Below are positions 7,406 to 63,479 of a stretch of 64,000 nucleotides of DNA, piece after piece (within the stretch, counting starts at the first letter, position 1; each line of letters begins with the position of its first letter). The notes below the pieces were generated by a model. The model searched no databases. It saw nothing but the letters and a program-made list of their open reading frames with translations, and had not been told where the DNA came from. Position numbers and translations under genes: made by a program. The stretch is from a virus: the IMG/VR virus record IMGVR_UViG_3300003430_000799; one strand, written 5' to 3'.

Positions 7406-8413
7406 ATGAAAAAAATAATAAGATTAACTGAAAATGATTTAATAAAATTAGTTAAACGTGTGATATTTGAACAAGAAAAACCTATAGCGTATGGACCTAC
7501 AGTACTTCAACTTTATTGTGAAGGTGGTAAAGGATTAGTCACACCTGATACAATGACAACACTTAAAATTGAAATTGATAAAAATACAAATTTAAAATAT
7601 AATGGAAAAAAACCAGGTCCTTTAAAGGAAGGATATGGGGATGGATTAACCATAGCGATAAAAGATAATTCTCAAGTTTTAAAAGATTATTTAATGGTAT
7701 CACTTGGGCTTTCTTTTGGTACAATTATCAGAAACGTAAGAAAAAGAGATGGTTTACCACTTGACCCTGAAGAAAAACGAGAATTCAACACAAGATTTAA
7801 TACTTTAAGAGATAAATTTAGGTCTAATTTTCCTGGCTTACCAGCAGAACCAACAACTGACGATATAAATCATATTATTGAAGATGATTTACCAAAGTAT
7901 AATGTTGAACAAATTAATAGATTAATCAAAAATATTCAAAATTTTAAATCTGAAATTGTAAAATTTGTAGAAAATGAACTAAAATTAGGTAATAATGTTT
8001 CATTTCCTTCTGTAGATAATGTATCATTGAATAATTTAAAATTAAATGAAAAGGTATTTGTTTCAGCAGATTTTTCTATTGATAAAAATAGGATTGGTAA
8101 GACAGAAGAAGAAAACAGAAAAAAACTTTTAGATGCACTTTGTAGTACATTTAAAAAATTCATAAATAGTGGAGGAATAACGCAAAACGGAATTGTTACT
8201 ATTCCTTCTATTGAGTATTTAATAACAATTAATCCACAACTAGACACCATAATAAGAAGTATTAATAAAGATTTAAATGTGTCAGGGTCACTTACAGCAC
8301 CAATTCCAAAATTGGTTTCAGATTTAAAACTTAAATATGATAGAGTTTTAATTAACGTTACTACGATAAGTCCGCCTAGAGTTGGTGAACCTAAAACAAT
8401 TCAATTAGGATAA
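7406..8413 (+). CDS. Hypothetical protein with MKKIIRLTENDL leader
   Basis: Start reassigned to ATG 7406, downstream of TATTTAT at 7383. Confidence 0.8.
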   Translation: MKKIIRLTENDLIKLVKRVIFEQEKPIAYGPTVLQLYCEGGKGLVTPDTMTTLKIEIDKNTNLKYNGKKPGPLKEGYGDGLTIAIKDNSQVLKDYLMVSLGLSFGTIIRNVRKRDGLPLDPEEKREFNTRFNTLRDKFRSNFPGLPAEPTTDDINHIIEDDLPKYNVEQINRLIKNIQNFKSEIVKFVENELKLGNNVSFPSVDNVSLNNLKLNEKVFVSADFSIDKNRIGKTEEENRKKLLDALCSTFKKFINSGGITQNGIVTIPSIEYLITINPQLDTIIRSINKDLNVSGSLTAPIPKLVSDLKLKYDRVLINVTTISPPRVGEPKTIQLG

Positions 8414-8447
8414 AAAAAACACTACGGAAACGTAGTGTTTTTTTTTT
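8412..8447. terminator. Bidirectional terminator
   Basis: A8-CACTACG-gaaa-CGTAGTG-T10. Confidence 0.9.
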
Positions 8448-9186
8448 ACCATTCTTTTTTATTGATAATGTTTAAATCGTTATTTGAAAAAACGAAAGAA
8501 AATGCTTCATTTTTAACAATATTATTTCTAAAATTTTTATTTGGTAGTGATTCTGACATTGAATTCATAAATTGATAATCAATCCAAAGATTTATCATAT
8601 CTTGATTATCACTAATATTGTATAAATTTTTTTGATTATCAGATAATGAATTGAACCATTTCAATGTGGAATTTAAAGTTTTTTCTCCTATATAGTCAAA
8701 ATTAAATTCAACCGAAGTTATCAAACCATCATAGTACACAATCTCAACTCTGAAATCTTGATTTGTTGTGTATTGTATAATACTATCAAATTCAAAAAAA
8801 CCATATCCACTATAAAAATTTAAACGATTATCTTTTTCTAAAAATACTTCAAAATTTGTATTTTTAAAAGTTATTTTACTAGGATTTTTATAATTGTCTA
8901 ATACTAAATCATTAGAATACTCACTAACAAAATTATTTAAACTAAACATAGTTAAATCTTCATTGGAGAAATACTCACTTTTTGATGTTGGTAATCTATT
9001 ACCTTCAACAACGTATACTTTGTTTGTTTTTATTTTATTATCAGATGGAATTAAAACAGAATCTTTAATTCTATCTCTCTCAAGTAAATCAACATATTTA
9101 ACTGAAATATAACCATCATTGTATACCATTTGTGAAAATGAAATTAATGGTAGAAGACAAAGTAGGAATAAAATTGTGTTTTTCAT
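8446..9186 (-). CDS. Secreted hypothetical protein (signal peptide MKNTILFLLCLLPLISFSQ)
   Basis: Start reassigned to 9186 (9204 is an alternative), downstream of a Bacteroidota-type promoter. Confidence 0.7.
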   Translation of the reverse strand: MKNTILFLLCLLPLISFSQMVYNDGYISVKYVDLLERDRIKDSVLIPSDNKIKTNKVYVVEGNRLPTSKSEYFSNEDLTMFSLNNFVSEYSNDLVLDNYKNPSKITFKNTNFEVFLEKDNRLNFYSGYGFFEFDSIIQYTTNQDFRVEIVYYDGLITSVEFNFDYIGEKTLNSTLKWFNSLSDNQKNLYNISDNQDMINLWIDYQFMNSMSESLPNKNFRNNIVKNEAFSFVFSNNDLNIINKKEW

Positions 9187-9219
9187 TGTAGTGTTGTTTT
9201 TCATATGATTTAATAAGTA

Positions 9220-9250
9220 CAAAAGTACAATTCTATTTTCTATTTCCAAA
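9220..9250 (-). promoter_or_regulatory. Bacteroidota sigma70-type promoter
   Basis: Minus strand TTTG-N19-TACTTTTG. Confidence 0.7.
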
Positions 9251-9277
9251 ACATTAGGAGTTTTTTTAAAAAAAAAT

Positions 9278-10325: not shown

Positions 10326-10628
10326 TTACTCTTCAAAATTTTTAATGTATTTTTTTATTGTTTGTCTTCTAACTTTATCAGAAACATCAGGAAAATTGTC
10401 TATAATTTCCAAATCAATTAAATCAACTAATCTTTTAACATTATTTTTGACAGGAATACCTTTATCGTCAACCATAATCTTATATTTTCCAAGAAAAGAT
10501 ATAAAATCTTCAGGTACTTCAATAACTCTATAATTACGTCTTATATAACGTAAAATCCTATCGTCAGCTTCTGAATACTTACTCAGTATATCATCTTTTT
10601 CTTCTTCAGTTATAATTAGTCTTTTCAT
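10326..10628 (-). CDS. Hypothetical protein with MKRLIITEEE leader
   Basis: Leader family; TATTTAT at 10635-10641. Confidence 0.8.
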   Translation of the reverse strand: MKRLIITEEEKDDILSKYSEADDRILRYIRRNYRVIEVPEDFISFLGKYKIMVDDKGIPVKNNVKRLVDLIDLEIIDNFPDVSDKVRRQTIKKYIKNFEE

Positions 10629-11458: not shown

Positions 11459-12757
11459 ATGAAACGATTAATTATATCAGAATCAGAACGAAAAAATATA
11501 AGAAAACTTTATAAATTAGATGAGGTGGATTCAAAAAAATTCGCAAGTGATTTTTTGAATTATGCTAAGTCATTAGCCAATCAACAAAATCAATCAAGTG
11601 AAAGTGGAGGATTATCATCAACAAGTTCTTCAAGTTCTTCAAGTTCTTCAAGTGAATCTTTAGGTCAAAGTGGTAGTGTTGCCGCTGGTGAATATTTTAA
11701 ACATCCTAATGCCGATAGTATAACTTTAAAGTCATATCCATCAGCTATACCACTTAATGCCGATGCAGAAAAACTTTTAAAAAGTATATTTGCTGAAGCT
11801 GGTACACCTGATTTAACATATACAAGTACACTTAGAACTTATGAAGACCAAGCAAGAGCAAATTCACAAAACAGAAGGGTTGATATATTAAATTGGTACG
11901 GTAATGAGGTTGTCCAAGCTTGGGACAAGCTAAAAGCAAATCAAATGACACAGCAACAATTTGCTGATTTTTTAAGAGAGAGAGACAAACGTACTGGAAA
12001 ACTTATGAGTAACCACTTATCTGGTTTTGCAATTGATATTACACCATATAGTGAAAAATTTGCATCTACAGCTGAAAAATTAATGAACCAAGGTAACTCA
12101 GGGATTAGAAAAGTTCTAAGAGAAAAAGGAAATAATGCTGTACACATTGAATTTAATTTTAATGTAACTGATAAAGGTGGTATTTCATCACCAGGTAGCA
12201 GTTCAAAACAAGGTGAAAAAAAATCTGATAAAGCAATTTCTAAACAAGGAATTATTATTGATAAGAATGTTGATTCTTCTGATTATGCTATTGTTTTTGG
12301 TGGTTACCCTAGCACCCAATTTGGTGCTCAATTTATGCAACAACAAGGTAGTAATTACTTGAAAAATAAAAACGTTGCGTATAGTAATTTTGAGAATTCA
12401 TTGGATAGTGTTATAAACTATATCAAATCAACTGACCCTAATGCTAAAATTAGTTCTGTGAGTGGTTTTTCTGCTGGTGGTAAAAATGCTTGGGCTGCAG
12501 CTAAACAAGGATATAAAGCAGGACTTATAGACCCTATAGTTACTTCTGATACTATGTCTTTATTAGGAAACGATTTAACTGGAACTTTACCACAGAATGT
12601 TAAAATGGTATCAAGACAAGAGAATTGGGGTGGTCAATACAGAAAACATGGTGATAGTTTAAGTAAAATTGAAAAAACTCAACCAGATATAAGAAGAAAT
12701 GTTAGTCACTCACAAATGCCAGCACAATTCTTTTCAGAATTTGCATCATTTGTTTAA
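11459..12757 (+). CDS. Leader + Ser-rich linker + M15-like Zn peptidase + alpha/beta-hydrolase-like domain
   Basis: TSTLRTYEDQ...SNHLSGFAIDI...VHIEF (M15/LAS fold); SGFSAGG nucleophile elbow, IDP, SH; start reassigned to 11459. Confidence 0.7.
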   Translation: MKRLIISESERKNIRKLYKLDEVDSKKFASDFLNYAKSLANQQNQSSESGGLSSTSSSSSSSSSSESLGQSGSVAAGEYFKHPNADSITLKSYPSAIPLNADAEKLLKSIFAEAGTPDLTYTSTLRTYEDQARANSQNRRVDILNWYGNEVVQAWDKLKANQMTQQQFADFLRERDKRTGKLMSNHLSGFAIDITPYSEKFASTAEKLMNQGNSGIRKVLREKGNNAVHIEFNFNVTDKGGISSPGSSSKQGEKKSDKAISKQGIIIDKNVDSSDYAIVFGGYPSTQFGAQFMQQQGSNYLKNKNVAYSNFENSLDSVINYIKSTDPNAKISSVSGFSAGGKNAWAAAKQGYKAGLIDPIVTSDTMSLLGNDLTGTLPQNVKMVSRQENWGGQYRKHGDSLSKIEKTQPDIRRNVSHSQMPAQFFSEFASFV

Positions 12758-13206: not shown

Positions 13207-14034
13207 ATGAGACTAATAATTAGTGAACAAGAAAAAATTCAAATAAAAAAACTATATAATTTAACCGAATTAGATTCAAAACAATTTGCTAAGGACTTTT
13301 TAGATTATGCAATGGATTTAGCTAAAAAATCTGAATCAAGTTCTGATGGTAGTAACAATAGTACGACAGATTATTCATCCTCTACAGATAGTGGTGGTGG
13401 AAGTGGTACTTCTTCTGATTTTATTGAAATAACTAAAAAAGTTATACAAAAATTTGAAGGTGGTTATTGGAATCCTGAATGTGCCAAATATCCAGGTACT
13501 AAACATCCAAGAAAAGAAGGTGCTTATAGTAGGTCAGGTGAAACTATGTTTGGTATTGATAGAGTGGCGGGAAATATTGAAGGAAATAGTGTTACAGCAC
13601 AAGAAGGTAAAGAATTTTTTGGACTTATTGATAAGGAAAAAGAAAAAATGGGTATGGAAAGTTTTTGTAATAAATGGAAATGGAATTATGATGGTGGTGA
13701 ATTAAGACCTCAACTCCTTGAACTAGGAGCAAAATTGATGAAAAAATTATACGATTCTAATGCCAAGAGTTTCTTTAAAGGTGATACTCAAAAAGTTGTT
13801 GAAAGTAGTAGACCATTAATGTTACATTTTTCATACGCAACTTGGAATGGTCCTGGTTTCTTTCAGGGTTTCGCTAAAAGAATTAATCAAGGTGTAAAAG
13901 ATGGATTATCTATTCGTGAACTTGTTAAAATAGCCAAAGAAGACCGTACAAATAAATTTGCTGGTACTTTTTGGGCTAAAGGAACAGAAAAAGTAAATGC
14001 AGCAATTGATGATGAAGCAGGATATAGTGCTTAG
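13207..14034 (+). CDS. Leader + linker + GH108-like lysozyme
   Basis: KFEGGY...GETMFGID; N-terminal ~35 aa paralogous to the 11459 gene. Confidence 0.65.
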   Translation: MRLIISEQEKIQIKKLYNLTELDSKQFAKDFLDYAMDLAKKSESSSDGSNNSTTDYSSSTDSGGGSGTSSDFIEITKKVIQKFEGGYWNPECAKYPGTKHPRKEGAYSRSGETMFGIDRVAGNIEGNSVTAQEGKEFFGLIDKEKEKMGMESFCNKWKWNYDGGELRPQLLELGAKLMKKLYDSNAKSFFKGDTQKVVESSRPLMLHFSYATWNGPGFFQGFAKRINQGVKDGLSIRELVKIAKEDRTNKFAGTFWAKGTEKVNAAIDDEAGYSA

Positions 14035-14037: not shown

Positions 14038-14382
14038 TTATTTTTTATCCTCAATTTCATCATAACAAAATAATTGACTATTATCTTTAGTTAAATAATA
14101 TTGATACCCCTCAATTTCTTTTTTTTGGGATATTATTTCTGTAGGTATTTTCATCTTACTACATAATTTATTTTTGTTTTCAGGGGTTTTAAAATCCTCC
14201 ACAGATTTAATTTCAAAAGGTTTTGTTTCCCCACTTGATGGAGGTGGTGTTCCTGTAGATGGTGGTATAGGAACAGGTGCAGGAGGTGGTGCTGGAGGTG
14301 GTACAGGACCTTGTTCCAATATGTATTTTTTCTCTAATAATATATTTCTTTCTTGAATTAATTTAGTTTTTCTATAAGACAT
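14038..14382 (-). CDS. Proline-rich hypothetical protein
   Basis: PPPAPPPAP linker; TATTTAT upstream. Confidence 0.75.
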   Translation of the reverse strand: MSYRKTKLIQERNILLEKKYILEQGPVPPPAPPPAPVPIPPSTGTPPPSSGETKPFEIKSVEDFKTPENKNKLCSKMKIPTEIISQKKEIEGYQYYLTKDNSQLFCYDEIEDKK

Positions 14383-15863: not shown

Positions 15864-16316
15864 CTACTTGTTAGCAAATCTATCCAAAATATATTCATCC
15901 AACATCTCCCAATTTTCACGATAATAATCATCATCAGAAATATAAGTTGGTTCGAATTCCCATTCATCAGCTCTACCAGAACTATATTGAATCAATTCTC
16001 CCTCCAATTCAAATATTTCACCATTATCCATTGTTTTTTCTAATCTAACATCATTGCCATCAAATTCAATTGTCGCCTCAAATTCTTTTTCAAATTTTAT
16101 TTCCAATTGAAGATTTTTACCTGAAAATACACTTTTCAAATCATTTTTAATATCGGATTCCAATTCAGCCATATTAGACCAATTTGGTTCACCTTCTAAG
16201 GTTATAGTAATTTTAGACCCTTCTATTTCAATGTCCATAATTTTATCGGAATAGAATCTTTCTAAATACTTTTTTATTGCTCCCTCAAGTTGAGATTCAT
16301 TAATTAATATTTTCAT
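15864..16316 (-). CDS. Acidic hypothetical protein, MKILINESQL leader
   Basis: Leader family. Confidence 0.8.
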   Translation of the reverse strand: MKILINESQLEGAIKKYLERFYSDKIMDIEIEGSKITITLEGEPNWSNMAELESDIKNDLKSVFSGKNLQLEIKFEKEFEATIEFDGNDVRLEKTMDNGEIFELEGELIQYSSGRADEWEFEPTYISDDDYYRENWEMLDEYILDRFANK

Positions 16317-16774
16317 TTCTTACAATTTTCAATAAATTTATTTTTGATAATATCACCATAATTTTCAATTAAATAATTTGACACCAAAAAAACAACATTC
16401 TCAAATTCAACACTATCGTCATCTAATATATCCTGAAAATGGTTGTAATATAAGAAGTCAAGAATTGCTTCTTCAACTACATTGAGAAATTTGTCAGGTG
16501 TTTCATATCGTTCACAATACAAATCCTTATTTTTCTCAAAATCATAGATTCTATCAAGTTTATCATCCATATAATCTTCGATAAGTTTTTTTGCCTTATC
16601 ATCATCAAATGGAATTTCAAATTTATTAATAAAATCCTTATAATCCATACCTAACATTCTTGACGTATCCATAATACCATCCTCGTTAGCTTTCTGTCTT
16701 ATCAAATTTTTAGTCCTCTCAACTTTATCTTCAGTTAGTTTTTTTAATTGTGACTCAGTTATTATAATTTTCAT
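16313..16774 (-). CDS. Acidic hypothetical protein, MKIIITESQL leader
   Basis: Leader family; shares the GIMDTSRMLG module. Confidence 0.8.
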   Translation of the reverse strand: MKIIITESQLKKLTEDKVERTKNLIRQKANEDGIMDTSRMLGMDYKDFINKFEIPFDDDKAKKLIEDYMDDKLDRIYDFEKNKDLYCERYETPDKFLNVVEEAILDFLYYNHFQDILDDDSVEFENVVFLVSNYLIENYGDIIKNKFIENCKK

Positions 16775-17349: not shown

Positions 17350-17595
17350 TTAATAATCTTCATCTTCCATTTCATCCTCTTCTTCTTCATCTGAATCCAT
17401 ATCTAAGTAATATTCTTCTTCATCTTCCATTTCATCCTCTTCTTCTTCATCTTGTTCAAGTAGAGGTTTTACATTTCCAAGTTTTGAATTTATAAACTTG
17501 TTAAATTTTTTTGTTTCAATAATTAAGGAATCATTATATTGTCCTAATATTCTTTGTTTTTCAGAATCTGATAGTTCGTTTAATAAATGTTTCAT
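17350..17595 (-). CDS. Small protein with duplicated acidic tail
   Basis: DEEEEDEMEDE occurs twice (about 36-bp direct repeat, 60-bp period). Confidence 0.75.
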   Translation of the reverse strand: MKHLLNELSDSEKQRILGQYNDSLIIETKKFNKFINSKLGNVKPLLEQDEEEEDEMEDEEEYYLDMDSDEEEEDEMEDEDY

Positions 17596-17751: not shown

Positions 17752-17789
17752 AAAAATCCCCACTCTAATTAAAGAATGGGGATTTTTTT
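17752..17789. terminator. Member of the ATCCCCA-N-TGGGGAT terminator family (also about 17302, 19041, 20921)
   Basis: Related hairpins between minus-strand genes. Confidence 0.75.
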
Positions 17790-18210
17790 ATAACAAACTT
17801 TTATCGAAATAAAAACGAATACCAAAGCCAGCACGCACCAATTTATCTCTTGGTTCACCTTCAAAAACAATATTATTTTTACCAAAATGATATCCACCTT
17901 CAGAAGTCACACACACCTTCATCAAATCTTCATCATTGTATTTTATTACAATTATTTTTGTTCCCCAATTTTCACCATATTCATCACCCTCATCACTTTC
18001 CAATTCTTCTACTTCTGAAGTTATTTCTTCATCCATATTTAATAATTCTTTTACTTTGTCTTCTAATGAATATCGACTGATATGGTCAACATTACCTTCA
18101 ATCCAATCATCCAACTCAGTTATCACTTCATCAATATCATAGGATTCTTTAATTATTCTTTTAACCAATTTACTTAAGTCAGATTCAGTTAATTTTACTA
18201 TTCTTTTCAT
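17788..18210 (-). CDS. Acidic hypothetical protein, MKRIVKLTESDL leader
   Basis: Start reassigned to 18210. Confidence 0.8.
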   Translation of the reverse strand: MKRIVKLTESDLSKLVKRIIKESYDIDEVITELDDWIEGNVDHISRYSLEDKVKELLNMDEEITSEVEELESDEGDEYGENWGTKIIVIKYNDEDLMKVCVTSEGGYHFGKNNIVFEGEPRDKLVRAGFGIRFYFDKSLL

Positions 18211-18247: not shown

Positions 18248-19009
18248 TCAAGAATTAAATAAATCAATTTCAGCTTGTCTTCGATTTGATACGCCTTGAG
18301 TTCCAATTGTATTATATGTTTTAATTAATTCAGCCGCCTTCTTATCATTTCCCTTTTTTAATTCTTGAAGAAATGCGGACTTCCTAACATTACCAATCCC
18401 AGAATTAAATGATAATGATACCAAAGCATCAAATTGCCCTTGTGTCACCATATACCCAGGAATTTTTTTATCCTTCCAACCCTTCAATATCTTTCGAATA
18501 TAATTTGCGTTCTCTCTAACATCTAAAACCAATAAATCATCCGCTTCTTTTTTACTCTTTAATACATCAGTCGGTTTAACATTCTGTGTGTGACCATACC
18601 CTATCGTAACAACACCCACACTATCCTTATATGCCTTATACTTCGGTTCTTTAACCCCACCTACCCTATTCTTTGGGTCACCCTCCCATTCTCTTAAAAA
18701 TGGCCATATTTTTCCACTAACACTCAATGTTGACCCATCTAACTTTTGTTTACCTGTTGATGATGGTTGACTTATTTTTTTTGTGAAATCAATATCCTTT
18801 TTTAAATTAAATGGGTCAGTAACAAAATTCATCATTTTATTATATGAATCACCTGATGTACTTTGACCAGATTTTACATTCTTCTTTTTTGGCTGACCAT
18901 ATACATAATCCATAACCTTATCCCAAGTATTTGTTATACCTTCTTCCATCATAACTTTTTCCACAATTCTAATCAAATCATCCTCGGTCAATCTTATAAT
19001 TTTTTTCAT
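18248..19009 (-). CDS. Leader + GH24 phage lysozyme
   Basis: EWEG...AYKDSVGVVTIGYGHT, QGQFDALVSLSFNSG, RRQAEIDLF. Confidence 0.9.
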   Translation of the reverse strand: MKKIIRLTEDDLIRIVEKVMMEEGITNTWDKVMDYVYGQPKKKNVKSGQSTSGDSYNKMMNFVTDPFNLKKDIDFTKKISQPSSTGKQKLDGSTLSVSGKIWPFLREWEGDPKNRVGGVKEPKYKAYKDSVGVVTIGYGHTQNVKPTDVLKSKKEADDLLVLDVRENANYIRKILKGWKDKKIPGYMVTQGQFDALVSLSFNSGIGNVRKSAFLQELKKGNDKKAAELIKTYNTIGTQGVSNRRQAEIDLFNS

Positions 19010-19077: not shown

Positions 19078-20274
19078 TTATAGTTTTTTCTTAATACGTT
19101 TTGACAATTCCGAAATTAATTCATCCTTGGTCTTTATCTTGGTAACAATTGGTGAGTTCTTACCATGTATTTTTTGATACATCTCCCAATCCCAAATTGA
19201 TTTGTTCTCTTTCATAGTTTTTTGATTTGTTAATTCATATAATCGACCCAATTTCTTAATCATCTTTGTTGCGGTATGTTTCATAAATCTCGCCTCATCA
19301 ATATAAAATCTTTCATAATCATCTTTATATTTTCCAATCTTATGTGAATAAGTGTTAATATAATTATCTTTATCGTCATTTACCATATGTTGAAAGAAAG
19401 GATTGTTCCTCCCTCTTGGATAAATGAAATTAATCATTTGTTCTTGTTTCCAATTCACAAGGTTAATATAAAATAATTCAAGGATACTATCAATAGCATC
19501 ATCTTCAGTATCAACATCCATACCAACCATATTCAAAATCTCATAAACTTGAGGCATATAGTTCTTTAATGATGTCTTTAAATTTTCCAATGAAAATTCT
19601 TTTGCCTCTTTTAATATTTTAAAAATCTCATTATCAACAAAAAAATTATAAAATTCTTTTGCTGTAATCTTTCCAAGATGAATCTCTGCCGCCAATTGTG
19701 TTGGTCTAACCAAATTCTCAATATGGTGAGTATAATATGAAAGAAATAAAAATCTATTCAATGGTCTTACCCCACCAAATCCCCTATTAGCACTAATTTG
19801 ATAATCAACCCTCTTAGGTAAATTTGTCTTATTCTTCTTGAAAGAATCATACGCATGTTTCAACTCATGGGCAATAATTGATATGAAACGATTTTTATTC
19901 TGTTGATAATATTCCAAGAATTCCTTATCCTCGAATTTTTCAGGAACAATAAACTCAATATTAATAATTGTCTCATCCTCTTCCACAAATACTTCCATTT
20001 GGAATTGGTCATTAACCGAAATATGTACACCTTGACCAAAACTTAAAAATGAAAAACTCCCACCTTGAACCTTATGTAACTCAACCTCCAAATTAATTGT
20101 TCTCAATTTCATATCCGAAATTGTATAATCACCAGTTAATATGGTCTTATAACTATTATCAGATTGAATGTCCTTTAAACTAGATAAAAATCTATATATC
20201 TCATCATATAACTTAATCGCACTGGGTATTATATTAACAGGTACTCCCAATGCCTCATTAATCTTTCTTCTCAT
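19078..20274 (-). CDS. HExxH-containing hypothetical protein
   Basis: IAHELKHAYD; N-terminal INE motif. Confidence 0.7.
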   Translation of the reverse strand: MRRKINEALGVPVNIIPSAIKLYDEIYRFLSSLKDIQSDNSYKTILTGDYTISDMKLRTINLEVELHKVQGGSFSFLSFGQGVHISVNDQFQMEVFVEEDETIINIEFIVPEKFEDKEFLEYYQQNKNRFISIIAHELKHAYDSFKKNKTNLPKRVDYQISANRGFGGVRPLNRFLFLSYYTHHIENLVRPTQLAAEIHLGKITAKEFYNFFVDNEIFKILKEAKEFSLENLKTSLKNYMPQVYEILNMVGMDVDTEDDAIDSILELFYINLVNWKQEQMINFIYPRGRNNPFFQHMVNDDKDNYINTYSHKIGKYKDDYERFYIDEARFMKHTATKMIKKLGRLYELTNQKTMKENKSIWDWEMYQKIHGKNSPIVTKIKTKDELISELSKRIKKKL

Positions 20275-20964: not shown

Positions 20965-21846
20965 TTATAAATTTTTATAAATCATATTAAATATTTTACT
21001 CATTAAAATTTCAAGGGGTAAATTTATCTTTAAATTTATTGTGTCCGACCTTAGTTCTTCTTTATTGAAACGTTTAGAATAATATTTAATGTAACTCTCC
21101 AAGAACATATTAAAATAATATTTAAGGTCAGTTTCTTTTATTTTATGGAATATTTGATAATTATTTTTTTCCATCTCTTTATCCATAATTTTGAATATCT
21201 CATCAATATAGTTTTTACCCTTTAATTTTTCAAATAATTGTTCATCAACCAAATCACTAACAATATAGTCATTATATAATCTCTCAAGTATAGTTTTTGT
21301 ATGCTCCCAATCATAAATTTTTTGTGTCAATTCATCCTCTATTTCTTGACCACTATATGTCGGTGCCATATTATATAAATCATTAGGAAAATTTTCATTA
21401 ATGTATGTATCCAATTTTTTAGACGTGAAATCTATGGCTTCCTTTAATTGCTCAAAATTAGAATATGTCCTTTTTTCATCATATCTGAATATAACCAATT
21501 TTTTGGGGTATTTCATAATTATTTTTTTACCCTCAATACTAGCCAAATTTTCTTTTATAATATTTTCAATATTTTCATCGTCAAATTCTATATAAGCTTC
21601 ATTAAAAAGTCTAATTATTGTTTCATTTATATATTCAACATAATCCTGGAGAAACATTTCACTATTCATTGAATAATTACTTGTTCGTTTTTTTGAAAGA
21701 AATACTTGTAATTCTTGAATAATTAACTCTTTTACTGTTTTACCATAATCCCATAATCCTTTACCAATACTTCTAACTTTTGGTTTTTTCTTATAAAACT
21801 CCTTAATAATTCTCTGAAGTTGTTGTTCACTAATAATAATTTTCAT
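20965..21846 (-). CDS. Hypothetical protein, MKIIISEQQL leader
   Basis: Leader family. Confidence 0.8.
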   Translation of the reverse strand: MKIIISEQQLQRIIKEFYKKKPKVRSIGKGLWDYGKTVKELIIQELQVFLSKKRTSNYSMNSEMFLQDYVEYINETIIRLFNEAYIEFDDENIENIIKENLASIEGKKIIMKYPKKLVIFRYDEKRTYSNFEQLKEAIDFTSKKLDTYINENFPNDLYNMAPTYSGQEIEDELTQKIYDWEHTKTILERLYNDYIVSDLVDEQLFEKLKGKNYIDEIFKIMDKEMEKNNYQIFHKIKETDLKYYFNMFLESYIKYYSKRFNKEELRSDTINLKINLPLEILMSKIFNMIYKNL

Positions 21847-21915: not shown

Positions 21916-22344
21916 TTATTTATCCCAAAATTTTTTATCTTTATTTCTTTTAAGCATTTTTTTATACCTTATAACCTCATCAACATTTACAAATCTAAAC
22001 CCATTGTATTCAAATGATTTATTATCAATCAAATCATCAATGTCAAATCCTGCCCAATTATTAAAAAATTCAATATCTTCAGTCCTATATTCATCATTAT
22101 CCCCAAATATCCATTTTGATGGTTTTATTATCACATCCAAATCATTCACATCATCCAACAACCCCTTAACAACTAATGGTGCAGAACCAAATATGGCATA
22201 ATCCCCATCCTCTAAACCATACCCCTTTAACTCATTCAATAGATATTTCAATCGCTCCCTAACCCCATCTTCCTTAATCTCATATATTAACTTATCAACC
22301 AATTTAACCAATTCACCCTCAGTTAATCTTATAATTCTTTTCAT
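21916..22344 (-). CDS. Leader + Pol-beta-superfamily nucleotidyltransferase-like domain
   Basis: AIFGSAPL...DVNDLDVII (GS...DxD). Confidence 0.7.
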   Translation of the reverse strand: MKRIIRLTEGELVKLVDKLIYEIKEDGVRERLKYLLNELKGYGLEDGDYAIFGSAPLVVKGLLDDVNDLDVIIKPSKWIFGDNDEYRTEDIEFFNNWAGFDIDDLIDNKSFEYNGFRFVNVDEVIRYKKMLKRNKDKKFWDK

Positions 22345-24525: not shown

Positions 24526-25541
24526 GTAGTTAGTTTATTTAGAGAGTCAGTTCGTATTTCGAATTGAAGATTAAAGAAGTCCCCCTCGGTGAGTGGGGAT
24601 TTTTTGTTTATGTCAGATATGATGTCATTCATATTACAATAAGATAACACGTATATTGGTTTGGGTTGTAACTTGGAGGTGTATATTGTGTATATACAAG
24701 TCCCACTTATATCATCCTGACAATATGTCACCACATATCTTTCGTTTATTTGAGATATTGTGGTGGGGATGTTGGTTAAAAACTGGTTCATAATTTAGTA
24801 TATTTGGGTCTGACACTATGTCAGTCGTTAATTTTTATGTTAAAATTGTTAAAAAATTTGGAAATGTCATTGTGTCAGGTGGAGGGGACAATCCCTTTAC
24901 CCACTTTTAAACAAATGATTTCCCACTTCTTCCCACAATTATCCACCAATAAATAGTGTTAATGATAGCTAAAACGTAATTTTTTGTGTCTGGAGGTATC
25001 ATTAGAGGTATTTTTTTTACTATATACATTTCTCAGAGAAAAAAGTTTGTTATCTTTGAGGGTTGGGTGGGACACATAGTGTCTTAGGAATAGGACTAAT
25101 ATAGAGTATAATATGAATACTTCAACCCCATCTTTGATGGATATGATAATGTTTAAATGATTATACAAATGAGTCTTATAGTGTTCATATAATTGGGCAT
25201 AATGAAATCCATTGATAATAACCCTTGTAATAATTTACCATAAAATATCATTGAAATAGACGATAGTCTAATATATCGTTGATATTGATGATAAATTACG
25301 ATTGTGGAGGATTTAATTACACTTACCATATATGGAGTCGGAGACGTATGAGAAAGTGTTGTGGTGAGGAAATGTGAGGGTTATATAAAGGATTACCAAA
25401 TAATAATGGGGAATTGGATTATGAGCGGAATGAATAGTGGAACGGAGTGGAGCGGTTCACCCACTGAAGGTGGGGGAAATGAAATGGGAGTGAGTAATTT
25501 AATTCCCCATTATTGTATTTATATGATAAAAGAAATATAAT

Positions 25542-26102
25542 ATGAAAATAATAATAACTGAAGAACAATTAAGATTGATTATTGAAAATGAGGGTGGGGG
25601 TAATTTAATGGATTTCACTAAAATACCTAAAATTGGATTACCATATAATAAATGGGATAGTTACTTTTTGTTTATGAATAAGAAGAATGGGGGTAACTAT
25701 GATGGGTATTATATTGATGGTAACCTTGATTTAAGAAAATACAATATGGATGATTATATTGATGATTTTAATTTTGACTATGAGGAAGACAGGCCATTTG
25801 GATTTGAGTATTTGGTTAGGGTGAATGGTTTTTTACATTTAAGGAATAGTGAGATTAGTGATTTGAGTAATTTGAAATATGTGGAAAGTTATTTGAATAT
25901 TAATAATACTAAGATTGATAGGTTGCCTGAGTTGGAATATGTTGGTGGTGGATTTGCGATGGAAAATACTGAGATAAGTGAGTTACCAAAATTAAAATAT
26001 GTTGGTGGTGTATTGTCTATATCAGGTAGTCCACTAGTGAAAGATTATGATAAACTAAGGGAAACAAACCCACAGGTTTGGAAAAAAATAAATAGAGGTT
26101 AA
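25542..26102 (+). CDS. Leader-array gene 1: LRR-like 20-aa repeat protein
   Basis: MKIIITEEQL; LPELEYVGG repeats. Confidence 0.85.
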   Translation: MKIIITEEQLRLIIENEGGGNLMDFTKIPKIGLPYNKWDSYFLFMNKKNGGNYDGYYIDGNLDLRKYNMDDYIDDFNFDYEEDRPFGFEYLVRVNGFLHLRNSEISDLSNLKYVESYLNINNTKIDRLPELEYVGGGFAMENTEISELPKLKYVGGVLSISGSPLVKDYDKLRETNPQVWKKINRG

Positions 26103-26103
26103 T

Positions 26104-26511
26104 ATGAAAATAATAATTAATGAGAATCAGTATAAACTTCTTTTGGAGAACTATTTAGAAATCTTAAAAAATAATTCATTGCTGGATTCTACAGGAATTG
26201 AAGGAAGGTTCTTAAACAAGAGACAAGCTAAAGAATTGGAAAATGAAATAGTAAGTAACTATTCAGATGAACTTAAATTCGGAAAAGAAGATAATGATAT
26301 AAGAAGAAATATTTTTAATATTGATAATCCGCTTGCTGAAAAAACTATCAATGGTGTAACATTAAAAATTGTAGAAGGTTTGATTAAAAATAAGCGAAAA
26401 ACTTATCTTTTATATGCTGATAATCAATTGATAGGTGAATTTTATTCTGTAAAAGATATAAAAAATATCGTAGACTTTTTAGAAAGTAAATTAATTAAAA
26501 ATTTAAAATGA
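26104..26511 (+). CDS. Leader-array gene 2: hypothetical
   Basis: MKIIINENQY. Confidence 0.8.
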   Translation: MKIIINENQYKLLLENYLEILKNNSLLDSTGIEGRFLNKRQAKELENEIVSNYSDELKFGKEDNDIRRNIFNIDNPLAEKTINGVTLKIVEGLIKNKRKTYLLYADNQLIGEFYSVKDIKNIVDFLESKLIKNLK

Positions 26512-26520
26512 AATTGAGTT

Positions 26521-27024
26521 ATGAAAGTAATAATTAGTGAGGAACAATTAAGATTGATTATTGAATCTGAGGATAAAAGAAAATTATTTAGAGTCCCTGT
26601 GGATTTTTTAATAAATCACACTAATGCTATACTAAACAATTACAAGAAGAAAGGGTTTGATGGGATTATAGTTGAGGGTGAGTTGGATTTGAGTGAATCT
26701 GATTTGAACTTAATTGAAAATCTATTAGATAATATTGTTAAAGTTGAGGGTTATTTGAGTTTACAAAATTCGCAAATAACATCATTGGGTAAATTAGAAG
26801 AAGTTAAAGGTTATTTGGATTTAATTAAATGTACAAAATTAACAGATTTGGGTAATTTAATTTCAGTTGGGGCTTTGAATTTAAGATTTGTACCAATTAC
26901 ATCTTTGGGTAAATTAAAAGAAGTTAGGGGAACTTTATATATTGAAGATTGTCCCCTCGCTAAATTAAGTGATGAGGAGATTAGAAGTCAGGTAGAAATA
27001 AAAAGAAAAATATATAGAGGTTAA
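26521..27024 (+). CDS. Leader-array gene 3: LRR-like repeat protein
   Basis: MKVIISEEQL; ITSLGKLEEVKGYL repeats. Confidence 0.85.
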   Translation: MKVIISEEQLRLIIESEDKRKLFRVPVDFLINHTNAILNNYKKKGFDGIIVEGELDLSESDLNLIENLLDNIVKVEGYLSLQNSQITSLGKLEEVKGYLDLIKCTKLTDLGNLISVGALNLRFVPITSLGKLKEVRGTLYIEDCPLAKLSDEEIRSQVEIKRKIYRG

Positions 27025-27025
27025 T

Positions 27026-27466: not shown

Positions 27467-27467
27467 T

Positions 27468-29037: not shown

Positions 29038-29038
29038 T

Positions 29039-29401: not shown

Positions 29402-29402
29402 T

Positions 29403-31570: not shown

Positions 31571-31571
31571 A

Positions 31572-41143: not shown

Positions 41144-41398
41144 ATGAAAAAGATAGTAAAACTTACAGAAACAGATTTAACTAGATTGGTTAAAAGAGTA
41201 ATCAATGAAGAGTATTGGAAGGATTATAATGAGGAATTAGAAGAACTAGAATCTAATTTGGATATGATTCAGGAAAGACTTGAGGGACTAACTCAAATTA
41301 TTGATAATGATGATAATTTAGACGATGATGAAAAGGATAATTTACAAGATTATGTTGATGAATTATATATTAGGTGTAAACCAAAGAAAAGACGATAA
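41144..41398 (+). CDS. Small acidic protein, MKKIVKLTETDL leader
   Basis: Leader; TATTTAT at 41109; terminator at 41399-41433. Confidence 0.8.
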   Translation: MKKIVKLTETDLTRLVKRVINEEYWKDYNEELEELESNLDMIQERLEGLTQIIDNDDNLDDDEKDNLQDYVDELYIRCKPKKRR

Positions 41399-44342: not shown

Positions 44343-45194
44343 TTAAAATGCCATCACATCAAAATGGACTAATTCTCCATTTATTTGTCCAATGTTTTCT
44401 CCGTGTAAATCTTTTGTTGATATATTGTTTTCTTCCAACTTCAATAATAACTCTCTGTATTTTTCAATATAGTCTATTAGTTCATCAAATGTTATACTTA
44501 CACTTGGAGTTGGTTTTTCTCTTTTTGGTATGTAATAATTGTCTTCATCGTCATCATCAAACTCCTCATCTTCCTCATCATCTTCGTCATTACTATAATA
44601 ACCACTGATACCAATTGGTGGGAGTTCATCTTCAGGTTCAGGACTTTCCAATCTATCAACCAAATTATCCAAAAACTCATCATCATAATCATCCCAAAAA
44701 TCAGAATCAGAATAGTTTGCACCCATATAAAACATCGTTGTGTAAATATCTTTTTCTGTTTTTGGAATTGGGTTGGCTTTATCCATTAAAATACCATAAA
44801 TGTTATATTTGGGATAAAATTCGTATCCATAATAATTAACAATACCTGGTATTTCTTTCCCTACTATTTTTTCAATCCCTTTGATTTCATCTTGGTCTTG
44901 GGTTAGTTTCAATATCTTATTGTTATCAACTAAAAAGGCCATTCCATAATAACCTCTTCCAGCATATTTGATTTTTTTAATACCAAACTTATCAACCAAA
45001 TCATTAACAATATCGTTAATACTATTTCCTGATAATCCTGTTTTGATTTTGGTAATACCTCTTTCAGTACCTGAAATAACATCTTTTCTCCAGTCTTTTT
45101 TTAATTTCTTAACGTTTTTAATATCACCATAATCATCAAATTGTTCACTTACGAACTCATTCAAGATTTTTCTTATAATGTTTTTATTTACCAT
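44343..45194 (-). CDS. Protein-kinase-like fold protein with acidic insert
   Basis: GRGYYGMA P-loop, ILKLT, DLHGENIG catalytic loop, HFD. Confidence 0.75.
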   Translation of the reverse strand: MVNKNIIRKILNEFVSEQFDDYGDIKNVKKLKKDWRKDVISGTERGITKIKTGLSGNSINDIVNDLVDKFGIKKIKYAGRGYYGMAFLVDNNKILKLTQDQDEIKGIEKIVGKEIPGIVNYYGYEFYPKYNIYGILMDKANPIPKTEKDIYTTMFYMGANYSDSDFWDDYDDEFLDNLVDRLESPEPEDELPPIGISGYYSNDEDDEEDEEFDDDDEDNYYIPKREKPTPSVSITFDELIDYIEKYRELLLKLEENNISTKDLHGENIGQINGELVHFDVMAF

Positions 45195-45825
45195 ATTTTT
45201 CTTTGTGTGCTTTCAATATTGTTTGTATGACTTCTTCTTGGTCTTTTGATTTCATATTGTGAATTGGTTTATTTTCTTCAAACCAAGTTCTTACCACCTC
45301 TTCAAATGGGAGTCTCTTTAATTTTGCAAGTCTTTTGAATCCTTGTATTTGTGCTGGAATTTCGTGAGCTTGTTGATAATATTTCTTTGAAATTTTAGGA
45401 CTTTTCTTGTTTAAATTAAATTCATCGTAGTATTGTTGTAATCCGTGTTCCAATTCGTGAGCAATAATTATATTTAATTCACCAATGATATCATACATTT
45501 GTTTCTTCAAGTTATCAGGATTAACTTTAAGGATTATTTCAACAACATCATCATCAGTTGAATAAGCTCCATTAAGAAGAAATCTGTCCAAATTATCATC
45601 GTAGATAATTTTAAATTCTATTGTAAATTCGACCTCATAATCATCGAATCGATAAGAATCCATTTCTTCTTCAGAAGAAATATCTTCAGGTAAATAAAAT
45701 TCACCTTCTTCTTTTCTTTTAATTATGTCCGTTAAATCTCTAACTACTTTTCTAACAACATTCCTTTCAATTCTTGACTCATTGATAATTGAACGAAGTT
45801 GACTTTCACTAATTATTATTTTCAT
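45184..45825 (-). CDS. Leader + HExxH metallopeptidase-like domain
   Basis: MKIIISESQL; IAHELEHGLQ...HEIPA. Confidence 0.75.
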   Translation of the reverse strand: MKIIISESQLRSIINESRIERNVVRKVVRDLTDIIKRKEEGEFYLPEDISSEEEMDSYRFDDYEVEFTIEFKIIYDDNLDRFLLNGAYSTDDDVVEIILKVNPDNLKKQMYDIIGELNIIIAHELEHGLQQYYDEFNLNKKSPKISKKYYQQAHEIPAQIQGFKRLAKLKRLPFEEVVRTWFEENKPIHNMKSKDQEEVIQTILKAHKEKYGK

Positions 45826-46472
45826 ATAAATAACTCACCTTTTACTCCAAATTTATTTTTAATTTCATCTTCACTCATTCCACTATCTTTTAATTCTTTT
45901 CCAAGGGGTGTATTAGTTAACATCAAATCACCACCAACTGAAATTAAATTAGGTAATGATTCAATGTCTGTATTATCCAAACCTAAATCATATTCAACTT
46001 CTTTTAATTTAGGTAGGGAGGTGATTTTTGAATGAGCATAATATAAATCCCCAACTGACATTAAATTAGGTAGTGAGGTAATTTTACAACGATTTGTAAT
46101 ATATAATTGTTTATTAGTACTAACCAAATCATCCAAATCACTATTTAATCTGAAAAAATTTATTGTTTTCAAATTTGGTAAATTGAATATTAAGTCAATT
46201 GTCGTTTTAGATAAGTTAATATCCACATCTAAATTAGTCTTTTTTATTATTTTTTTCAAATTTATTACTGATGGTTTATATTTAAAAAGTTTGAATAATT
46301 CTTCATAATGTCCCAATATTGTACTCTGTTTTATCTTTAAACCTTTTGCAATCTGGAATGCAATATCAATATTTGTTTCATCAAATGTTTCAATTAATTC
46401 CATAATCTGTCCGAGATATTCCTCGTTTTCCAATATTAGTTTATACTGACTTTCTGTTATTATTATTTTCAT
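45822..46472 (-). CDS. Leader + LRR-like repeat protein
   Basis: ITSLPKLKEV/LPNLISVGG repeats; duplicate of 46469. Confidence 0.85.
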   Translation of the reverse strand: MKIIITESQYKLILENEEYLGQIMELIETFDETNIDIAFQIAKGLKIKQSTILGHYEELFKLFKYKPSVINLKKIIKKTNLDVDINLSKTTIDLIFNLPNLKTINFFRLNSDLDDLVSTNKQLYITNRCKITSLPNLMSVGDLYYAHSKITSLPKLKEVEYDLGLDNTDIESLPNLISVGGDLMLTNTPLGKELKDSGMSEDEIKNKFGVKGELFI

Positions 46473-47062
46473 ATAAATAACGTACCTTTAACTCCAAATT
46501 TATTTTTTATTTCATCTTTACTCATTCCACTATCTTTTAATTCTTTTCCAAGTGGGGTTTTTTCTAAACCTAAAGTACGCCCAACTGAAATTAAATTAGG
46601 TAATGATTCAATTTTTGTACCCTCTAACTCAAGAGTACCAACTTCTTTTAATTTAGGTAATGAGGTTATTTTACAGTTAGATGAAAAAAATAATTGTTTA
46701 TTTGTACTTACTAACTCATCCAAATCACCATCATTTAATGTGTAAAATGTAATTATTTGTAATTTTGGTAATTTGAATATTAAGTCAATTGTTTTTTTGG
46801 ATAAACTAATCTTAACATCTAAAATAGTCTTTTTTGTTATTTTTTTTAAATTTCCTATTCTTGGTTTATAATTAAAAACTTCAAATAACTCTTTGTAATG
46901 TTCCAATATTGTGCTCGGTTTTATCTTCAAACCTTTTGCAATCTGGAATGCAATATCAATATTTGTTTCATCAAATGTTTCAATTAATTCCATAATCTGT
47001 CCGAGATATTCCTCATTCTCCAATATTAGTTTATACTGACTTTCTGTTATTATTATTTTCAT
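46469..47062 (-). CDS. Leader + LRR-like repeat protein (one repeat fewer)
   Basis: First ~48 codons near-identical to 45822. Confidence 0.85.
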   Translation of the reverse strand: MKIIITESQYKLILENEEYLGQIMELIETFDETNIDIAFQIAKGLKIKPSTILEHYKELFEVFNYKPRIGNLKKITKKTILDVKISLSKKTIDLIFKLPKLQIITFYTLNDGDLDELVSTNKQLFFSSNCKITSLPKLKEVGTLELEGTKIESLPNLISVGRTLGLEKTPLGKELKDSGMSKDEIKNKFGVKGTLFI

Positions 47063-61241: not shown

Positions 61242-61309
61242 AAAATAATTTTTTTGGTTTATTAACTGATTATATATAATCTTAGTTTGTTAATAAAACC
61301 AAATTTCAA

Positions 61310-61328
61310 TATTACCTTATTGTTAAGT
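61310..61328 (-). promoter_or_regulatory. Pho-box-like site ACTTAACAATAAGGTAATA
   Basis: Matches 44322-44340. Confidence 0.55.
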
Positions 61329-62013
61329 TTTTTGTCTGTAATACATATGACATAACCTTTCTCTTGAATAATGGAATTAAAGTTTCTTCCATTGGTATGT
61401 CTTTTTCACAATGAAGATAAAATGCTGGTAGTGTATTATCGGATGAGTGTATATGTTTTAATAAATCATCCCCAAATTTTTCTACAATATTGAACTTATC
61501 ATAGCCCTTGTACTTTCTGATATTGTACTCCCAAATCTTTATTATTTGACTAGATTTGGTATAGAAATAACCTTTCTTAGAACCAATGTTATCTTCATTA
61601 TATATCGATACTATTTCTATTGAATCATAAACAACTGTCCATATTGATTTAATAATATCAAAGTAATCTTGGAGTTTGGATAAACTATATTGTAATATAG
61701 TTTTGAGTTCGTTTAATTCGGTGACTTTGAGTGGAGGTAAATCTTTTGTTTTTAAATCAATAAAAGTTAACTCATCATCATAACTGGTGAGTTTCTTATC
61801 TGTATATAATATTTTATTATTTTTGATGATGTTTTGGACATTAGCAAGATGTAGTGTTATTTCAGTAAACATAGGATAGACTTTCATTTCTTCCAATTGT
61901 TTATTCAATTTTTGGAAATAACCTAATAAAACATATTGTTTCTGTTCTGCGTCTATGACTCCATCAAATATCCAATCTGTGTCCATCACAAACTTTAATT
62001 TATTTTTTCCCAT
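61312..62013 (-). CDS. Hypothetical protein
   Basis: 233-aa ORF. Confidence 0.8.
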   Translation of the reverse strand: MGKNKLKFVMDTDWIFDGVIDAEQKQYVLLGYFQKLNKQLEEMKVYPMFTEITLHLANVQNIIKNNKILYTDKKLTSYDDELTFIDLKTKDLPPLKVTELNELKTILQYSLSKLQDYFDIIKSIWTVVYDSIEIVSIYNEDNIGSKKGYFYTKSSQIIKIWEYNIRKYKGYDKFNIVEKFGDDLLKHIHSSDNTLPAFYLHCEKDIPMEETLIPLFKRKVMSYVLQTKNLTIR

Positions 62014-62048
62014 ATCAAAAATATAACTAAAGTTTTTTAAAAAATAAA

Positions 62049-63479
62049 TTAATTTGTTCTTACAACAACAAAATTGTATCTAGTACCATCAGGTCCTGAA
62101 ATAAAGACATCATCATATGTTCCATCATAACTTGATATTACTCCAATACCATCACTATCAACAATATCTTCAGCAACACCTTTTACATTAACATAACTAT
62201 GAATACTATCTTCCATATCCATACCTTTTAACCAACGAACTGGATTATCCATAGCTTTTCTAACATAATTACTTACTTTTTCTTCAATCATTTCTTCTGT
62301 TGGTTCATCATCAGGTACAATACTATCTAATTCATCTTGAAGTTCATCTATTTGTTGTTCCAAATCATTAATTTCATCTTCCTCTTGTGTATTTTCCAAT
62401 TGTTCTTTCAAATCACTTATCTGATTCTCCAATTGTTCTTTTCTTTCCTCTTGTTCATCAGTTAGTTCAAAATCTTGTTTTCTAAAATATCCTTCAGGAT
62501 AATCCCTTATATCCCTTTCATAAAACTCCTCAATATACTCTCTGATAGATTCTTTATCAATATTATCCATTAATAAATAATTAGACAACCCATTTAATCC
62601 AATTTCATCTAATAATTGTTCTTGATAGTCAACTGCAGCATCATACATATCGTCATATGTTCCAACCATATATTCTTTACCCCTCAATCCAGTAACCTCA
62701 AAACTATATAATGTTCCATAAGGTTTATAATTTGTTGGGATTATATAATATACATCAGCACCTTGTGATTTTAGTTCTTCAATTTCATTAAGTAAATCAA
62801 TACTCTTATCTTCTAAACTTTCTAATTCTTCTTTGGTTGCTGTGTCTTTTATTGATTTATATCTGTATTGAATATCTTCATATTCCTCCATTTTAGATTT
62901 AATTTCAGTAATGGTTTCTTCATCTATTTCATCTAATTTACCCTCTCTAACTAAATGGTTAAATAAAGCATTTGCTGCCAATCCCTCTTCATCAATATCA
63001 GGATTATCTAATCCCCAATCATTATCTTCTCTCCTTGATTCAGCTTCTCCCATTTTCTTTAATTCTTCTCTTCTCATTCTCATCGCAGCAATTGGTGTTC
63101 CATAGTCATGAACCCATCCTTTAACATAAACACCATCCAATCTTGATATTTTGGTATTACTTATGTTCAAACTACCCATAACTTTTACATTTCCCAATGT
63201 TTGAAGTGGAACACCTGATACATCCAAATCACCATCAACAATTGCAACATTACCCAAATTAGTCATAGTGTTATCTGACCCAATTAATTTCAAATTACCT
63301 GTAATGTATAATGGTTTACCTTTAAACTTTTTAATACCAGTAACCTTGGGATTATATGATGCGTATTTTAATAAATCCAAATAATCTTGTGGTGATATTT
63401 TGTAATATTCTTCATCTTGTTCTTTAAGAACCTTTACCAATTTCTCAAATTGTTTACTATCTATGATAATTTTTTTCAT
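62049..63479 (-). CDS. Leader + LRR-like repeats + acidic coiled-coil protein
   Basis: MKKIIIDSKQF; NLGNVAIVDGDLDV repeats. Confidence 0.8.
   Translation of the reverse strand: MKKIIIDSKQFEKLVKVLKEQDEEYYKISPQDYLDLLKYASYNPKVTGIKKFKGKPLYITGNLKLIGSDNTMTNLGNVAIVDGDLDVSGVPLQTLGNVKVMGSLNISNTKISRLDGVYVKGWVHDYGTPIAAMRMRREELKKMGEAESRREDNDWGLDNPDIDEEGLAANALFNHLVREGKLDEIDEETITEIKSKMEEYEDIQYRYKSIKDTATKEELESLEDKSIDLLNEIEELKSQGADVYYIIPTNYKPYGTLYSFEVTGLRGKEYMVGTYDDMYDAAVDYQEQLLDEIGLNGLSNYLLMDNIDKESIREYIEEFYERDIRDYPEGYFRKQDFELTDEQEERKEQLENQISDLKEQLENTQEEDEINDLEQQIDELQDELDSIVPDDEPTEEMIEEKVSNYVRKAMDNPVRWLKGMDMEDSIHSYVNVKGVAEDIVDSDGIGVISSYDGTYDDVFISGPDGTRYNFVVVRTN

Follow-up and report, generated by a model that had tools for sequence, protein, structure and literature searches.

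Leader-bearing genes in the window

The DNA analyzed in this study is a 64,000-nucleotide (nt) stretch of the IMG/VR virus record IMGVR_UViG_3300003430_000799; this whole stretch is referred to as the window. It is phage-like, with 29% GC (guanine plus cytosine) and ~92% coding sequence, and about one third of its genes begin with one of a few short N-terminal peptides, here named leaders, that stand before otherwise dissimilar proteins, here named payloads. Three strict leader classes were defined: A (MKIIISE-type), B (MKKIIRLTE-type) and C (MNLQEQ-type). Two further kinds are the D leaders (MKRLIITE-E-K type) and the E leaders, a short helix ending ILKEE or ILREE.

Scanning of all six frames with strict patterns revealed 29 open reading frames (ORFs) with strict leaders in the window (17 A, five B and seven C). 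These ORFs encode 82-335 amino acids (aa), and the leader lies at, or no more than a few codons from, the first possible start. Looser D or E variants were found on ~8 additional ORFs. The leaders are 7-22 residues long. Leader genes are laid out as an 11-gene plus-strand array, a convergent seven-gene minus-strand array, a three-gene group and scattered singles (Table 1), the outermost being at 7406 and 63479.

After removal of the first 30 residues, 37 leader proteins fell into 27 clusters (BLASTP, E<1e-3): a family of eight resembling leucine-rich repeat (LRR) proteins, one cluster of three, one of two and 24 singletons. Unbiased clustering of residues 2-16 of all called window proteins gave clusters of 17, 5 and 4, whereas the control clustering of residues 41-56 gave a single cluster of 3. 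The sharing of leaders by unrelated proteins is real and well beyond chance. The original prediction, made from the sequence alone, had proposed about 35 unrelated proteins with shared short N-terminal leaders between 7406 and 63479, and our analysis bears out both the number (29 strict and ~8 loose, in 27 payload groups) and the span, which runs from the first to the last leader gene.

Comparisons were made with related contigs, among them the more distant relative G1, the close relative G3 (128.5 kb, 85-97% DNA identity to the window over syntenic blocks, overlapping window positions 1-35300) and the complete relative G6 (IMGVR_UViG_3300032280_000442; 308,574 bp, direct terminal repeats, rated 100% complete).

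Proteins behind the leaders

Leaders of one kind head varied proteins, including a GH24 lysozyme, an HExxH protein, zinc-ribbon proteins and LRR-like proteins. The GH24 lysozyme stands behind a B leader (Pfam 6.5e-26), and lysozymes of other phages align with this protein only from about residue 77 on; it is separate from the GH19 endolysin. The HExxH motif occurs in one A-led protein and is kept in a homolog. Both proteins had been named as payloads in the original prediction and both are confirmed. Two other proposed payload types found weak matches: the largest payload family is weakly LRR-like (Recep_L_domain near the cut-off), and the M15 peptidase match of a D-led protein is below the cut-off. 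A GH108-like lysozyme and a nucleotidyltransferase, proposed as well, received no confirmation from Pfam or PHROGs. Most window payloads had no Pfam or PHROG match, and payloads are small (median 186 aa). In G3, an A-led protein of 550 aa is a multi-domain peptidoglycan hydrolase that matches the PHROG 'internal virion protein with endolysin domain' at 3.7e-14.

A short second module of approximately L-I-x3-G-x7-M-L-G-I-x4-L, helix-turn-helix-like by eye, was observed after A and C leaders in proteins that are otherwise dissimilar. Its position suggests that these proteins are built of three parts, namely leader, adaptor and payload.

The leaders might also be the conserved N-termini of one or a few old paralog families, the rest of the proteins having diverged and the N-termini having no addressing function. 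The eight A-led proteins of the LRR-like family are true paralogs, and the second helical module is shared by several A- and C-led proteins, as such an origin would have it. However, one leader is found on GH24 lysozyme, HExxH, zinc-ribbon and LRR-like proteins alike, and one payload is found with different leader classes in different phages, which makes simple paralogy very unlikely indeed.

Leader ends, junctions and leader exchange

At the sequence level, leaders end in (I/L/V)-x-E, in agreement with the (I/L)-x-E ending first proposed for them. Conservation in B leaders extends up to Glu22 (21 of 22 sequences), which is preceded by V-I-x, and collapses after it. C leaders are conserved up to I-N-E19, and A leaders have I-x-E7 and often I-I-E15. 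Leader proteins have 2.0 [IL]xE sites per protein at residues 3-25, vs 0.45 in other proteins and 0.42 at residues 26-48 of the leader proteins themselves.

Comparison of homologous payloads revealed that the leader can differ while the payload is kept. The payload at 33121-33624 has a C leader in the window, whereas an A leader stands before its G1 homolog (38% over 114 aa, E 2e-10), and for the HExxH payload at 45184-45825 the leader is A in the window and E in the G3 homolog (E 9e-9). In three window/G1 ortholog pairs with differing leaders (window 20274, window 63479 and a DHH gene), homology resumes directly after the Glu of [IL]xE. The G1 homolog of the 398-aa gene at 19078..20274 has a 21-residue A-like leader ending L-S-E, with homology from right after the Glu, and for the 476-aa gene at 62049..63479 the junction is the same although the leader of the G1 homolog is another one, ending VLSE. 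Across the window positions overlapped by G3, homologs in G3 were found for none of the four B-led payloads and for two of the seven C-led payloads, and G3 carries other B-led genes at nearby positions. Leaders are modular and swappable between homologous payloads.

The window copy of the DHH-type gene has an in-frame TGA. Its G1 ortholog reads FHQD-LDG, is without the two extra codons (Leu, stop) and begins with a complete A leader; that of the window copy is degraded but still ends in L-I-E, before the shared SGIRD. The window gene could be a pseudogene or a case of bypass or recoding.

Conservation and distribution of the leader peptides

Conserved leader residues are coded from different codon boxes (Leu TTA/TTG/CTT/CTA, Ser AGT/TCN, Arg AGA/CGN). 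A B-leader profile of 34 columns matched 8261 of 1.84 billion cluster representatives (protein clusters at 50% identity) at E<=1e-3, and 700 of them at E<=1e-10. The match begins at residue 1 in about 130 of the 150 hits listed. All members sampled are unnamed or 'hypothetical protein' and come from metagenome or read-archive collections, and a comparison of 99 metagenomic B-led proteins with Pfam was almost blank. The synonymous codons from different boxes, together with the occurrence of the B peptide in 8261 protein clusters, point to selection on the peptide: leaders are conserved as peptides, not as DNA.

These results also bear on the explanation that the repeated 5' ends act as nucleic acid, either as recombination anchors or as an A/U-rich translation-initiation region, the peptide being a by-product. 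Cassettes of promoter and leader do lie at differing places in the window and G3, and 5' ends are near-identical within arrays, but the codon usage and the 8261 clusters speak for the peptide, and a nucleic-acid role is considered highly improbable. Recombination at leaders may be a secondary consequence.

The 34-residue A, B, C and short-C leaders gave nothing relevant against GenBank phages (tblastn, E up to 10), and 20 kb of the window gave no match to GenBank phages by megablast. The B-leader profile had no match in Flavobacterium phage immuto or Microcystis phage Mel-JY01, and no more than a marginal match in LR756508. The ESM Atlas yielded nothing beyond a weak virus cluster. No paper came up when the full text of the literature was searched for the B core motif.

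Two other identities for the leaders were considered and rejected. They are not signal peptides (Sec, Tat or lipoprotein), being charged and amphipathic and without a hydrophobic core of 10 or more residues; the true signal peptides of these genomes look unlike leaders (a mixed cluster of 10). They are not an N-terminal LRR cap, as non-LRR proteins are headed by the same leaders.

Related genomes and the head module

All three strict leaders occur in arrays on many related IMG/VR contigs of 29-31% GC and up to 214 kb, and the protein set of the window occurs on a contig of 295,135 bp. The window is a member of an uncultured clade of T4-like jumbo phages of ~300 kb. An S77 protease (Pfam, E 5e-24) is encoded on three of five related contigs. 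On the coding (minus) strand of G3, the gene order is large terminase, portal, two small proteins, protease, acidic scaffold-like protein and gp23-type capsid protein. The protease is 34% identical to T4 gp21 (BLASTP, E 1.6e-18), and the major capsid protein matches T4 gp23 structures in the PDB at E about 1e-24. The head module of G3 has the T4 order 20-67-68-21-22-23. Its capsid protein and protease carry [IL]xE sites at the places of those in T4 gp23 and gp21: L-K-E44 and I-N-E60 of the capsid protein fall in a region that aligns immediately ahead of the VRR segment conserved in T4 gp23, and the protease has L-I-E18 at the place of L-I-E9 of T4 gp21. B, D-like and E-like leader genes lie directly beside the G3 capsid gene.

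The head module of G6 is as in G3. Profile and clustering scans of G6 identified 32 A/B/C leader genes as well as D and E groups, ~40 of 393 called ORFs, most of them at 18-124 kb and including an operon of D- and B-led genes near the packaging genes. Close relatives of the protease are present on at least 598 IMG/VR stretches, and the 80 that were listed (loci L041-L120) are at least 79% identical.

The scaffold-like protein of G3 is extremely acidic, has a four-fold tandem DEDYMSTM repeat and has N-terminal helices that resemble E-type leaders. A complex predicted for this protein and residues 1-60 of a B-led protein scored 0.00, a value that speaks neither for nor against binding. Two genes downstream of the capsid gene lies the gene for a protein whose E-type leader, ending L-K-E, is followed by A-T-S-E-S-G-S; this resembles the capsid segment I-N-E / A-T-S-D-G-S-S. 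The resemblance is short and of low complexity, and when the N-terminus predicted for the mature capsid protein is compared with the first residues of its 296-aa neighbour, BLASTP reports no similarity.

A TATTTAT motif upstream of leader genes

The motif TATTTAT was found on the sense strand 6-30 nt before the ATG of every single leader gene and of the first gene of every array. In the window, G3 and G1 together, with the motif counted within 50 nt upstream, it precedes 30 of 30 unit-heading leader genes vs 86 of 263 other unit-heading genes (Fisher p 6e-14); in G6 it precedes 6/6 and 78/189, respectively. The 8-mer ATATTTAT is mildly over-represented (32 observed vs about 22 expected), and what sets it apart is where it stands and how it is oriented with respect to gene starts.

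TATTTAT was also found upstream of the terminase, protease and scaffold genes of G3 and of the sheath, tube-like and gp25 genes of G1. It is absent before the genes for DNA polymerase B, 5'-3' exonuclease, a RecA-like protein, RNR and ThyA, five of the six DNA-metabolism genes checked. Since TATTTAT is common to leader and virion genes, leader genes probably belong to the virion-gene promoter class. The motif is unlike the T4 late promoter. In G1, the end of TATTTAT is often just 4-6 nt before the ATG, closer than in the window (12-30 nt), and if TATTTAT is a -10-type element this would imply that G1 mRNAs are leaderless or nearly so.

The breadth of this promoter class is relevant to the explanation that leaders are a virion-docking tag, either uncleaved or directed to another particle part such as the neck, whiskers, baseplate or head surface. 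The genes preceded by TATTTAT include those of tail and baseplate in addition to those of the head; proteins such as the LRR-like payloads and the cell-wall hydrolases are what host-contact parts typically carry, and acidic payloads would suit an outside position better than a DNA-filled head. However, small payloads are unlike trimeric fibres or spikes, and the start of homology exactly after (I/L)-x-E, together with a gp21-type protease, is better explained by cleavage within the prohead. Docking is therefore judged rather unlikely.

Table 1. Leader genes, motif positions and neighbouring features in the window and in relatives.
Feature	Contig	Coordinates	Strand	Remarks
B-leader gene, 335 aa	window	7406..8413	+	payload without assigned function; TATTTAT 16 nt before ATG at 7406
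D-type leader gene (MKRLIITE-type), 100 aa	window	10326..10628	-	
D-type leader gene, 432 aa	window	11459..12757	+	weak M15 peptidase match
D-type leader gene, 275 aa	window	13207..14034	+	
Gene with weak leader-like start, 114 aa	window	14038..14382	-	motif upstream
Two A-leader genes	window	15864..16774	-	starts 16774, 16316; downstream of 157-aa gene with motif at 17271-17277
Gene with weak D-like start, 81 aa	window	17350..17595	-	
B-leader gene, 140 aa	window	17788..18210	-	start is ATG at 18210
B-leader gene with GH24 lysozyme domain	window	18248..19009	-	domain at residues 123-247; linker of ~100 aa between
398-aa gene	window	19078..20274	-	7-residue start ending I-N-E
A-leader gene, 293 aa	window	20965..21846	-	payload without assigned function
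B-leader gene, 142 aa	window	21916..22344	-	
11 back-to-back A-leader genes	window	25542..31041	+	starts 25542, 26104, 26521, 27026, 27468, 28013, 28579, 29039, 29403, 29942, 30694; several members LRR-like; small helical module common to three
Array of 7 C-leader genes	window	31058..34256	-	starts 34256, 33624, 33119, 32847, 32209, 31964, 31570; short ILREE-type variant in two genes
B-leader gene, 84 aa	window	41144..41398	+	acidic
283-aa gene	window	44343..45194	-	loose E-type leader (IRKILNE)
3 A-leader genes	window	45184..47062	-	starts 47062, 46472, 45825; HExxH in last; downstream of 575-aa and 546-aa genes; unit headed by motif at 50448-50454
476-aa gene	window	62049..63479	-	loose leader ending VLKE
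TATTTAT before A array	window	25516..25522	+	19 nt before first gene
TATTTAT, plus-strand genes	window	7383, 11437, 13184, 41109	+	
TATTTAT, minus-strand genes	window	10635, 14397, 18239, 19024, 20289, 21861, 22360, 34274, 50448, 63510	-	ATAAATA on plus strand
Second-module proteins	window	27468-28016, 28013-28579, 29403-29945, 16313-16774, 31058-31570, 33121-33624		otherwise dissimilar proteins
DHH-type gene	window	55900-56236	-	in-frame TGA
DnaK/Hsp70	window	3-1517	-	Pfam 3e-238
FKBP-type prolyl isomerase	window	10990-11415	+	between leader genes
SusC-like TonB receptor	window	41435-44263	-	CarboxypepD_reg domain
Other host-like genes	window	51749-52183, 57202-59461, 53900-54286, 2859-5730	-	SmpB, two C5 cytosine methyltransferases, NUDIX hydrolase, GAF-PAS histidine kinase and receiver protein
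Scaffold-like protein	G3	38619-40184 (L040:5620-7185)	-	four-fold DEDYMSTM repeat
Loci of the A-T-S-E-S-G-S / A-T-S-D-G-S-S resemblance	G3, G6	G3 33972-34862, 36741-38582; G6 264974-266200		
Two-module AAA+ protein, 676 aa	G3	52609-54639 (L020:12609-14639)		PHROG 'ATP-dependent protease', E 3e-244

Because a SusC-like TonB receptor with a CarboxypepD_reg domain is encoded in the window, we infer that the host is probably a member of the Bacteroidota.

Interpretation of the leaders

The best explanation for the leaders, to which we give about an even chance of being right, is that they are T4-style prohead-targeting tags that are then cleaved by a protease. Core binding, cleavage, packaging and injection of the leader proteins are each deduced from sequence, and the course of events would be as follows. 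Leader genes would be transcribed from TATTTAT-type promoters, the class that also serves genes for head, tail and lysis. At the N-terminus, 7-22 residues that comprise a short stretch of beta-branched residues and then an N-capped amphipathic helix would bind the prohead core as it assembles, and the gp21-family protease would cut after the Glu of the (I/L/V)-x-E at the leader end. The mature payload would stay in the head and exit with the DNA at infection. Payloads could serve as cell-wall hydrolases (the GH24 lysozyme, and the multi-domain peptidoglycan hydrolase in the relative) or as fast-evolving takeover or anti-defence effectors.

In phage T4, a capsid-targeting sequence is carried by the internal proteins IPI-III and by Alt and is removed by the gp21 prohead protease. 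The principle of such tagging has been known for T4 since the 1990s, and the classic T4 internal proteins are basic. The T4 tag is formed by residues 1-10 of IPIII, cleavage by gp21 follows L/I-x-E, and the T-even internal proteins are diverse, the tag alone being conserved (PMC9026906, PMC3012670, PMC5694885). The phages of this study resemble T4 in having a short N-terminal tag, ending (I/L)-x-E, on unrelated fast-evolving proteins, a gp21-family protease with a T4-ordered head module in the lineage, and payload genes that vary among close relatives while the tag is kept. They differ from T4 in having three to five or more tag classes instead of one, with tags of up to 22 residues.

T4-like capsid-targeting and injection tags were the central claim of the original prediction. 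The claim has partial, circumstantial support from the gp21-family protease in the T4-ordered head module of relatives, the motif shared with virion genes, the (I/L/V)-x-E junctions, the number of [IL]xE sites near the N-terminus, the leader exchange, the selection on the peptide, the leader genes beside the head modules of G3 and G6 and the A-led 550-aa protein of G3 with its internal-virion-protein match. Several observations weigh against it. Leaders have no detectable sequence similarity to the T4 capsid-targeting sequence and are like T4 N-termini only in style (amphipathic, ending I/L-x-E); with peptides this short, homology to the tag of T4 can be neither established nor excluded. Most payloads are acidic (median isoelectric point about 5). 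The number of tagged genes per genome, ~40, is roughly ten times that of T4, which has about five. The head module is documented on contigs of close relatives and not on that of the window itself. The DnaB-like helicase gene, a replication gene, does have TATTTAT, and for this reason the promoter class can be called 'late' by inference only. The [IL]xE motif is of low information (background 1.6 per 100 aa), and its enrichment in leader proteins stems in part from how leaders were defined. Finally, the metagenomic proteins P0019, P0021, P0022, P0025 and P0058 have the B motif twice, at the N-terminus and 100-180 residues in; B is thus not strictly an N-terminal signal and would suit a binding or cleavage module. 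These proteins may be polyproteins, fused gene calls or carriers of a repeated binding helix.

The internal B motifs fit equally a binding module unrelated to the virion. Leaders would then be an intracellular handle, recognized by phage chaperones or unfoldases (DnaK, the FKBP isomerase, a Clp-like ATPase), or a shared oligomerisation or localisation helix of late host-takeover proteins. Genes for a DnaK and a two-module AAA+ protein are present in these phages, as is one for an FKBP isomerase, which lies between leader genes, and the short hydrophobic cores with basic flanks in the leaders (KIIIS, KKIIRL) resemble Hsp70-binding motifs. Such a handle would leave unexplained why conservation stops at a Glu with I/L/V at -2, why module junctions fall there and why leader genes are co-regulated with virion genes, and we regard it as possible but unlikely.

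Within the reading of leaders as prohead-targeting tags, a more elaborate scheme can be drawn, which is doubtful and quite improbable. Leader classes A-E would form an addressing code, each class being directed to a different prohead-core partner or layer or to a different ejection order; phage DnaK, FKBP and Clp-like machinery would keep the ~40 mostly acidic cargos loading-competent; and internal B motifs would mark polyproteins split by the prohead protease.

Comparison with other phage systems

Paralogs with identical N-termini have been reported in phiKZ, 201phi2-1 and SPN3US (PMC5694885). These are likewise jumbo phages in which many head-internal proteins are cut after Glu by a diverged gp21-like protease. 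However, they belong to another phage lineage, their propeptides are mostly >100 residues with the motif S/A-x-E, and the head module of the clade described here is much closer to that of T4 (protease 34% identical to gp21). The Dar system of phage P1 is similar in that it loads protective proteins while the head is being formed and delivers them together with the DNA; it differs in its hierarchical loading via DarA/Hdf, and no homology of the Dar proteins to the proteins studied here was seen. To our knowledge, Dar loading does not proceed through a common short cleaved tag. T7 gp16-type proteins (PHROG 342) are matched by the 550-aa A-led protein of G3 in the hydrolase domains only; T7-type core proteins are large and without a removable tag.

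Significance of the leader repertoire

While the principle of tagging is known from T4, what is new here is a multi-class leader set of ~40 members in a clade that is abundant and uncultured. Should the leaders be loading tags, no known repertoire of proteins that enter the cell along with phage DNA would come near that of these phages, ~40 per genome. The candidate cargos turn over fast among close relatives and nearly all are without assigned function, and the repertoire would be a catalogue of candidate first-minute effectors, such as cell-wall enzymes, anti-defence proteins and takeover proteins. The leaders would also provide short portable tags with which chosen proteins could be loaded into such phages. 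Given the abundance of the clade (at least 598 stretches, and the B tag in 8261 clusters), one cleavage assay or virome metaproteome could annotate thousands of 'hypothetical' proteins.

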